From Eledone cirrhosa (Eukaryota): a DNA stretch of 64,000 bases. Under the pieces are notes generated by a model. That model searched no databases and had not been told where the DNA came from. It worked only from the letters and a program-made list of their open reading frames with translations. Position 1 is the first letter of the stretch. Every line of letters starts with the position of its first letter. The stretch spans positions 127,931-191,930 of the forward strand of contig CAXHJY010001100.1 in assembly GCA_964016885.1 (NCBI GenBank). Reading direction: 5' to 3'. The translations under genes and the position numbers were made by a program. This document shows, in pieces, positions 47,317 through 48,564 of this stretch.

Positions 47317-47512
47317 AACGAAGGAAATGTGGTAAGGAACCAGGTGGACCATAACGCACCAAAGTACTCAATACTTGAGGTAGTAGAGTGGGTAATAGGA
47401 ACCAGTAAGACCCCGACAGCTGAGCTCAAGCCGTTTCGACGGCTAATTCTGGACAGTGTCCAGAATTAGCCGTCGAAACGGCTTGAGCTCAGCTGTCGGG
47501 GTCTTACTGGTT

Positions 47513-47554
<42 letters not shown>

Positions 47555-47749
47555 AAAAGAGACAGGACTCCGACGGCTGAGCTCCGGCCGTTTCGACAGC
47601 TAGATCCGAACAGTTAGTATCTAGCTGTCGAAACGGCTGGAGATCAGCCGTCGGGGTCCTGACTCTTTTCCTATTACCCACTCTACTACCCTAAGTATCG
47701 AGTACTCTGGTGCGTTATGGTCCACCTGGTATCTTACTACACCTTCTTT

Positions 47750-47752
<3 letters not shown>
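47317..47752. mobile_element. Two adjacent copies of a (TA)n-embedded palindromic element (family P); further copies at 25504-25600, 32994-33051, 48273-48477, 59144-59306, 62598-62655, 62894-63022
   Basis: Perfect 123-bp palindrome 47395-47517 and imperfect palindrome 47550-47674, each with one extended arm; contains GAAACGGC-ttgagctca-GC(C/T)GTC. Confidence 0.8.
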
Positions 47753-47814
<62 letters not shown>

Positions 47815-47815
<1 letters not shown>

Positions 47816-48226
47816 AAAGAAATAGGATTAGCCCCCCTCCCCCGGTGTTTGTATAGCTACGCTTCCTAAAACCGTATTTCTTTGGAGATACGAAATATTT
47901 ATACATATTGTATAAAGCTATGCTTGAAGCGAAATCCTATTTCTTGTTTATTATAAGTTGAGCCAACCTATGCAGCTTCATATGCAAATGAGATTAATCA
48001 CCTCATTTACATAGACGAGAAAACTATATATTCTCGCCTGTCTTCTAGTCCAGCAGTCGTAAGCGGTGTGAGGTACCGTCCTGACAAAGGCCAGTTAAGC
48101 CTGAAATGCATAGACGGTTGTCCCCCTTGCTTCTGCTGGACATCACCAGATGGCGTTAGCCCTCCCGGTGTTTGCATAGCTACGGCTTCCTAATACCGTA
48201 TTTCTTTGGAGAAACGAAATATTTAT

Positions 48227-48230
<4 letters not shown>
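47815..48230 (+). mobile_element. (TA)n-flanked element with an approximately 325-nt partial tandem unit containing a hammerhead motif (retrozyme or pLTR-like)
   Basis: About 75-bp direct repeat at 47828-47905 and 48156-48229, with the HHR between them. Confidence 0.6.
48075..48118 (+). ncRNA. Minimal type-I hammerhead ribozyme with a G8A core change
   Basis: accgtc-CTGACAA-aggc cagttaa gcct-GAAA-tgca-TA-gacggt: perfect stems I and II, palindromic stem III. CTGACAA differs from CTGACGA at a CpG. Confidence 0.75.
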
Positions 48231-48279
<49 letters not shown>

Positions 48280-48564
48280 GGAATTGTGGTAAGGAACCAG
48301 ATGGACCATAACGCACCAGAATACTCAATACTTAGGGTAGTAGAGTGGGAAATAGGAAAAGGTATGACCCCGACGGCAGAGCTCAAGCCGTTTCGAGGGC
48401 TATTTCTGGACTCCAGAGTCCAGAAATAGCCGTCGAAACGGCCTGAGCTCTGCCGTCGGGGTCATACTTTTTCCTATATATTTATATATATATATATATA
48501 TGCATGTATGTATGTAAATAGCAAGTGATTCAGTAAATTACCGAGCACTCGATGCTAGATTTAC

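Follow-up and report, generated by a model that had tools for sequence, protein, structure and literature searches.

Head-to-head stubs of a Hydra-like Penelope-like element in Eledone cirrhosa, with two end clusters that likely mark an RNA start and a hammerhead cut site

Insertions of Penelope-like elements (PLEs) are described as carrying a pLTR, partial tandems, a head-to-head inverted 5′-truncated copy, a one-sided tail, and a junction palindrome, in microsatellite targets that hide any target site duplication (TSD) (PMC8557442, PMC3846280); self-priming has been proposed for the palindromes (Arkhipova et al. 2013, PMC3846280). PLE transcription starts in the pLTR (PMC8557442), where the start of D. 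virilis Penelope was also located (PMC2377424). The role of the PLE hammerhead is called unclear (PMC8557442) and pLTR regeneration has no obvious mechanism (PMC2377424). In vitro, the protein of Poseidon from Anolis carolinensis (Frangieh et al. 2024, PMC11167929) was shown to cleave AT-rich DNA and to extend both target strands, with reverse transcription beginning at two internal sites that set the limits of the tail; ribozyme cleavage was dispensable there. The R2 RT adds bases and jumps templates (PMC8857657). U3-A8 hammerheads are a published variant of PLEs, as in the Cercyon elements of Schistosoma (Cervera and De la Peña 2014, PMC4209133). Among cephalopods, Octopus vulgaris has recently active Penelope families, and the sections of that report used here mention neither hammerheads nor palindromes (PMC13282606).

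The element of Eledone cirrhosa described here shares all of the insertion features listed above, and its stub architecture is in itself ordinary and already published. It differs from the insertions in PMC8557442 and PMC3846280 in its tail (78 nt, against 30 to 40 nt there), in that about 90 of 100 sampled copies are stubs, and in junctions that map to two points; no published account of such two-point end mapping was found in a search that excluded most subscription journals. With the Hydra clade of C-terminal EN+ PLEs (Craig et al. 2021, PMC8557442), it shares an RWR (RWK-like) motif, DKT, a divergent RT4, a CxCX5C linker, a C-terminal GIY-YIG domain with CxxC and CxH, insertion into (TA)n, and a hammerhead at the 3′ end. 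Units there are generally <3 kb and cores are canonical, whereas here the unit is 3.5 kb long and the ribozyme has U3:A8, a long branched stem II, and a 9-nt loop III; the Hydra-1_Obim ribozyme listed in the same paper is unlike the Eledone sequence. Poseidon likewise has a hammerhead in the pLTR, two internal RT starts flanking the tail, an AT-rich target, and extension of both strands, but it belongs to another clade, and the data consulted in PMC11167929 hold no RNA reads ending at the cut site, compared with six genomic junctions here. Cercyon (PMC4209133) shares U3-A8 covariation, a long helix II, an unpaired base near the helix II start, a palindromic loop III, and closely spaced opposite-strand motifs, and differs in its minimal helix III, which is a full 5-bp hairpin here.

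The window, the whole stretch of DNA analyzed, is 64 kb long and comes from a genome of 3.0 Gb. It contains eight full or partial copies, at 47317-47517 (copy A), 47550-47752 (copy B), 48275-48477 (copy C), 25470-25599, 32792-33053, 59144-59307, 62599-62652, and 62890-63021. Element positions are counted from the G of GAAA (G12 = 0), with +23 for the base that follows the GUC triplet; TTCCTAT forms the end called site 1, and site 2 is the tail end. The parts of the copies are as follows.

47317..47394, minus strand: copy A 78-nt tail, between putative RT start sites 1 and 2, with (TA)n outside
47395..47454, minus strand: copy A tailed arm, hammerhead 3′ half from -17 relative to G12 of GAAA
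47455..47457, no strand: copy A 3-nt spacer, axis at 47456
47458..47517, plus strand: copy A tail-less arm, from -17 up to site 1 (TTCCTAT), with (TA)n beyond; GAAA at 47475
47550..47611, minus strand: copy B (lineage B) tail-less arm, from -17
47612-47618: copy B spacer
47619..47752, plus strand: copy B tailed arm and tail, then (TA)n; GAAA at 47630, site 1 end at 47674
48275..48412, minus strand: copy C (lineage C) tail (48275-48351) and tailed arm from -18
48413-48416: copy C spacer
48417..48477, plus strand: copy C tail-less arm, -18 to site 1
32792..33053, plus strand: longer tail-less arm with both ribozyme halves and part of the 3′ UTR; 5′ core CTGAGAA at 32948, TTAGTC at 32991, GAAA at 33011
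59144..59307, minus strand: stub with unequal arms, the tailed arm reaching to about -14 and the tail-less arm starting from about +20
62890..63021, plus strand: lineage B stub, a lone tailed arm flanked by two (TA)n runs
62599..62652, plus strand: lone tail-less arm from -18
25470..25599, no strand: rearranged stub pieces around a (TA)n run

A first-pass annotation made from the sequence alone had found the motif GAAA-CGGC-loop-GCCG-TC, followed by GGGGTC, in eight full or partial copies and had read it as the 3′ half of a hammerhead. The motif is present in the window as described, and complete parents support the reading; the axes near 47456, 47612-47618, and 48413-48416, with spacers that differ, are likewise where it placed them. 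The palindromes that it reported are real, although only three of the eight copies are complete (the remaining five being partial) and those three are asymmetric: one arm ends at site 1 and passes into (TA)n, while the other adds the 78-nt tail, which in parents runs on into the 5′ UTR and ORF. None of the eight copies has CTGANGA at the core position, as had been stated, but a 5′ half is present, as CTGAGAA, in the copy at 32792-33053. The annotation had also given each copy's arms private variants. Copy A forms a palindrome of 121 nt in which every pair matches, and its variants are those of a young intact lineage (99.3% identity over 143 nt and 100% over 60 nt with the intact array locus L243); the arms of copy B differ at 4 of 56 positions, and those of copy C have three differences outside the spacer.

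Other repeats lie nearby. A 69-nt direct repeat (47841-47908 and 48164-48232, about 95% alike) ends at the (TA)n beside copies B and C and falls outside the PLE end examined. Positions 46800-46975 form a short tandem satellite of alternating 18- and 15-nt units. We take 48525-48720 to be a SINE-like repeat; sequence resembling it also occurs in flanks of other loci.

Parents with a 5′ core exist, as the first-pass reading implied, with TTGANAA in place of CTGANGA: 517 exact matches were found, plus 165 for the lineage B version, and several of the 517 form inverted pairs 0.1 to 2.4 kb apart. A search for CTGANGA itself gave only 54 heterogeneous matches at variable spacing, which lay in spacers and flanks and were rejected as chance; their flanks, together with the window copy at 32792-33053, led to the longer TTGAAAA-bearing sequence. 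The supposition that the mirror arm had replaced the 5′ core did not stand, as the core lies instead upstream of where the copies stop. The cores of 45 parents are TTGAAAA (19), TTGAGAA (12), CTGAGAA (9), and TTGATAA (5).

By its predicted fold, the parent hammerhead is complete and of type I, with three helices around UUGANAA, GAAA, and UH and a U3:A8 core (UUGANAA), so that searches with CUGANGA miss these ribozymes; the canonical type I core (CUGANGA, C3-G8) is not what the parents carry. The consensus fold of 16 parents is a three-way junction with stems I, II, and III of 5, 9, and 5 bp, in which 95.7% of cells are paired. Between lineages, three pairs of stem II differ in both partners, essentially through two or three lineage events. 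G10.1 and C11.1 are kept, but unpaired bases separate both from helix II, and the base of stem II is interrupted. Folding of a lineage C parent gives the three-way junction with z = -2.4, two lineage A sequences did not exceed shuffled sequences in folding (z = -0.6 and -1.1), and Rfam found no hammerhead in three parent loci. In the predicted fold of L243:3660-3783 and of lineage C parents, putative RT start site 1 falls at the base of the extended stem I.

Upstream of the parent ribozyme lie a 3′ UTR and then an ORF. The parents form tandem arrays with a unit of 3.53 to 3.54 kb; seven of nine fetched array stretches have frames of 466 to 786 codons (784 to 786 in five), and one locus (L123) is a pLTR-ORF-pLTR copy. 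From the first fitting Met, the ORF encodes a 716-aa protein with an RT plus a GIY-YIG endonuclease at the C terminus, whose YRDD and VIY..YIG motifs match PLE rows in figures of PMC8557442. The protein has RWR at 36, DKT at 116, CNCPDRSIC at 571, CNLCSEE at 669, and also CKH. Homologues of about 700 aa numbered 2,213 among 7,998 scored candidates; Pfam gave no match to the ORF protein, and a PDB sequence search gave nothing relevant. A single RT/GIY-YIG ORF, tandem and partial-tandem pLTR units, and an inverted 5′-truncated copy with a one-sided tail are the marks of EN+ PLEs. RWK-like and DKT motifs, the CxCX5C linker, CxxC and CxH, and (TA)n insertion are those of the Hydra clade, which is further characterized by a canonical hammerhead core. 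That core is not found in the parents, and the element is therefore filed as an EN+ PLE that appears Hydra-like by its motifs, rather than as a member of the Hydra clade. A first guess of Neptune or Nematis was dropped, as the motifs match Hydra instead. Two side observations concern the ORF. Upstream of the first fitting Met, its frame has no stop for another 68 codons, a stretch that spans the tail and part of stem III (L243:3756-3960). One intact array has at its 5′ end a satellite derived from the element, in which a 55-nt piece of the ORF is repeated about 40 times in tandem (L242:6770-9083).

Exact matches to a 31-mer spanning site 1 number 26,825 in the genome, which sets a minimum of 26,825 copies. 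Arm ends were scored in the first 100 exact matches to the tail on contig C1 (100/100) and, for lineage B, in 68 further copies (70 fetched of 2,589 matches, less 2 duplicates); these samples, from contigs C1 and C2, are biased to young exact matches. In the main sample, the tail is 78 nt long in 65 of 67 scorable cases, 75 of 100 copies have an adjacent inverted arm, and the tail-less arm ends exactly at site 1 in 52 of these 75. Both outer ends lie in (TA)n (55/67 and 41/45), and among the 67 and 45 ends scored in these flanks, no TSD other than TA was found. Genome-wide, 4,837 palindromes have both arms reaching to -17 and a spacer of ≤30 nt. Spacers are diverse among the first 50 palindromes of this class; 4 are empty, and 3 contain A/T runs of ≥5 without a parent counterpart. 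The length of the palindrome center varies from 0 to >2 kb. The palindromes are almost certainly 5′-truncated stubs of this high-copy PLE, each made of two head-to-head arms. A palindromic master element was rejected, as a recurrent spacer is found in no more than 72 copies, compared with 4,837 palindromes, and lies either way round relative to the tail. The earlier view that every insertion builds its own mirror arm holds. Among the stub loci, three (L031, L038, and L054; G000:C1 and C4) have an identical 130-nt upstream flank and so sit in or beside another repeat family, and three others (L165, L168, and L169) have internal deletions between the GCCGTC motifs of stems II and III, with loss of the GAAA-stem III block.

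Arm ends concentrate in stem II. Tailed arms (n = 100) start at -29..-12 in 59 copies, beyond -100 in 10, and at +23/+24 in 5, of which at least one has GGGT microhomology. Of 74 arm stops, 55 fall at -12..-23, where the stop rate is 6.2% per nt, compared with 0.4 to 0.6% downstream, 1.2% at -24..-63 (19 at risk), and 0 to 0.1% beyond -64; alignment error on end positions is about 3 nt, and the -25 class is probably over-extension. With this peak, the clustering of axes in stem II noted in the first-pass annotation holds. In lineage B the mode is again -18 (7 direct and 4 inverted arms). The cluster tracks an initiator-like TTAGTY motif and not the hairpin tip: lineages share TTAGTY or TCAGTY, with its A at -18, and YAGT at -19..-16 is conserved in most of the 45 parents. 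A literature search gave no match for TCAGT plus TTAGT. Reading TTTAG as a 3′ splice site was dropped because the arm ends include AG.

A second set of ends comes from copies that run from the tail into the 5′ UTR (332 pattern matches). Of these, 81 loci outside the arrays fetched whole were examined (L211-L240, L250-L260, and L351-L390), and about half extend far up- and downstream. Twenty junctions were resolved in which a piece whose end lies at +183..+940 adjoins a second piece with the same orientation. These second pieces start as follows.

-21..-17 (13/20): L212, L213 (twice), L214, L216, L239, L252, L357, L365, L369, L381, L382, L389
+21..+23 (6/20): L233, L237, L353, L359, L372, L374
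near +9 (1/20): L361

The two junctions of L213 may be one duplicated event, L353 (in the +23 class) has a 2-nt overlap, and five loci (L224, L232, L240, L358, and L376) were left uncounted because no junction of this kind was resolved in them. L213, L216, L239, and L252 were at one time taken as full-length copies and are instead short head-to-tail pieces. Six of 19 junctions within a 3-nt window of 106 positions gives a P value of about 1e-5 (computed before L252 was added). Five loci (L213, L237, L353, L359, and L369) stop two or three times at one base, which we infer to be copying to a fixed RNA end, a jump, and copying to that end again. In the tandem arrays the whole ribozyme is copied through.

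The two end clusters likely mark an RNA start and the ribozyme cut site, a hint of ribozyme activity in the living animal. The main RNA would start at about -18, at the initiator-like TTAGTY inside stem II, so that the 5′ ribozyme copy would be only half transcribed and sites 1 and 2 would lie only 60 and 138 nt from the RNA 5′ end. The enzyme of the element would copy this RNA start twice, from sites 1 and 2, onto the two cut target ends; both cDNAs would run off the RNA 5′ end, slightly trimmed or extended, and would then be end-joined, which would make the palindrome axis the RNA start. That the stubs arise from two cDNAs, started at two internal sites on one RNA and joined head to head, is probable on these data, and that the cDNAs run off at an RNA 5′ end seems more secure still. 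Against this scheme, the arm ends spread over 12 nt and would need trimming or heterogeneous starts. The long copies would come from priming in the downstream pLTR of read-through RNA from tandem units. Such RNA would hold a whole ribozyme and could be cut at +23, giving a second RNA class, and at either RNA end the enzyme could re-enter the RNA by a jump and copy to that end once more. Hammerhead cleavage in vivo, to which the junctions at +21..+23 point indirectly, is likewise probable.

We lean toward a transcription start at -18, with reasonable rather than strong confidence, over an RNA end made there by a nuclease, through small-RNA slicing or a structure-specific RNase, with the rest of the scheme unchanged. 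A nuclease would suit the lack of a clear enrichment for a cap-derived extra G at -19 among the arm ends examined, the partial DPE-like and MTE-like matches at the right spacing (5/6 and 7/12, read by hand), and the place of the lineage B motif in a predicted bulge. It is nevertheless unlikely: TTAGTCC matches the initiator consensus YYANWYY (PMC4581360), the motif keeps a fixed distance from GAAA despite differing neighboring bases, and two studied PLEs start transcription in the pLTR (PMC2377424, PMC8557442).

Two cDNAs could also be made by an enzyme that stalls at -18 on RNA structure or a bound protein instead of reaching an RNA end. The scatter of ends over -12..-23 and the preservation of stem II by compensatory change fit a stall, after which the base addition and jumping described for the R2 RT could also follow (PMC8857657). 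We give this little weight, since a structural block would be expected at the base of a helix and not after its unwinding, tandem arrays were copied through several ribozymes, the stop tracks a sequence motif in lineages whose pairing differs, and single loci stop repeatedly at one base, which is -21 in some and +23 in others.

The first-pass annotation favored another route, in which a single cDNA, by fold-back or a template switch at the stem II hairpin, serves as template for its own mirror arm. The axes in stem II, the spacers that vary from copy to copy, the lineage variants shared by the arms of one copy (with linkers identical in 20 of 42 cases, against 4.3 expected), a few joins on native hairpins such as stem III (L097, L107, and L203), and the published self-priming proposal (PMC3846280) all speak for it. 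As the main route it is hard to sustain and appears very improbable, since an arm crosses the hairpin tip in only 6 of 75 palindromes and the longer arm (by ≥5 nt) is the tail-less one in 22 of 75, and thus has sequence absent from the tailed arm, about as often as it is the tailed one (25), although some of the 22 belong to the probably over-extended -25 class. Fold-back is further opposed by the single exact base at which 52 of 75 tail-less arms end, the absence of any spacer in 4 of the first 50 loci, the lineage B cluster at least 12 nt from its predicted hairpin tip (-35..-30), and the head-to-tail junctions that start at the same place without inversion. The sharing of variants between arms (in 45 copies, 16 in both arms against 90 in one, with many of the 16 being lineage variants) does not discriminate between fold-back and two cDNAs. 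That the unit is a DNA MITE, or a fold-back element bounded by fixed inverted ends, with a chance likeness to a ribozyme has next to no probability, for all its fixed outer ends in (TA)n and very high copy number: the tailed side does not end in the inverted repeat, the center varies from 0 to >2 kb, a shared spacer explains only 72 of the 4,837 palindromes, and the unit is the end of an RT/GIY-YIG element whose parents already refute such a reading.

Under the preferred reading, in which two cDNAs run off one RNA and are joined, the stubs in their tens of thousands and the intact tandem parents predict two exact RNA ends, and the genome offers biochemistry a Hydra-like element that is still young. 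Stubs of this type can easily be mistaken for MITEs, and their ribozymes escape CUGANGA descriptors. It is possible, though we hold it only tentatively, that the RNA starts inside its own ribozyme, that only read-through tandem RNA is cut, and that both classes are reverse transcribed in the germ line, with template jumps from the 5′ ends of these RNAs building partial tandems, which are what PLEs need as promoters. If true, the genome would record both the in vivo cleavage of a U3:A8 PLE hammerhead and a mechanism of pLTR regeneration.
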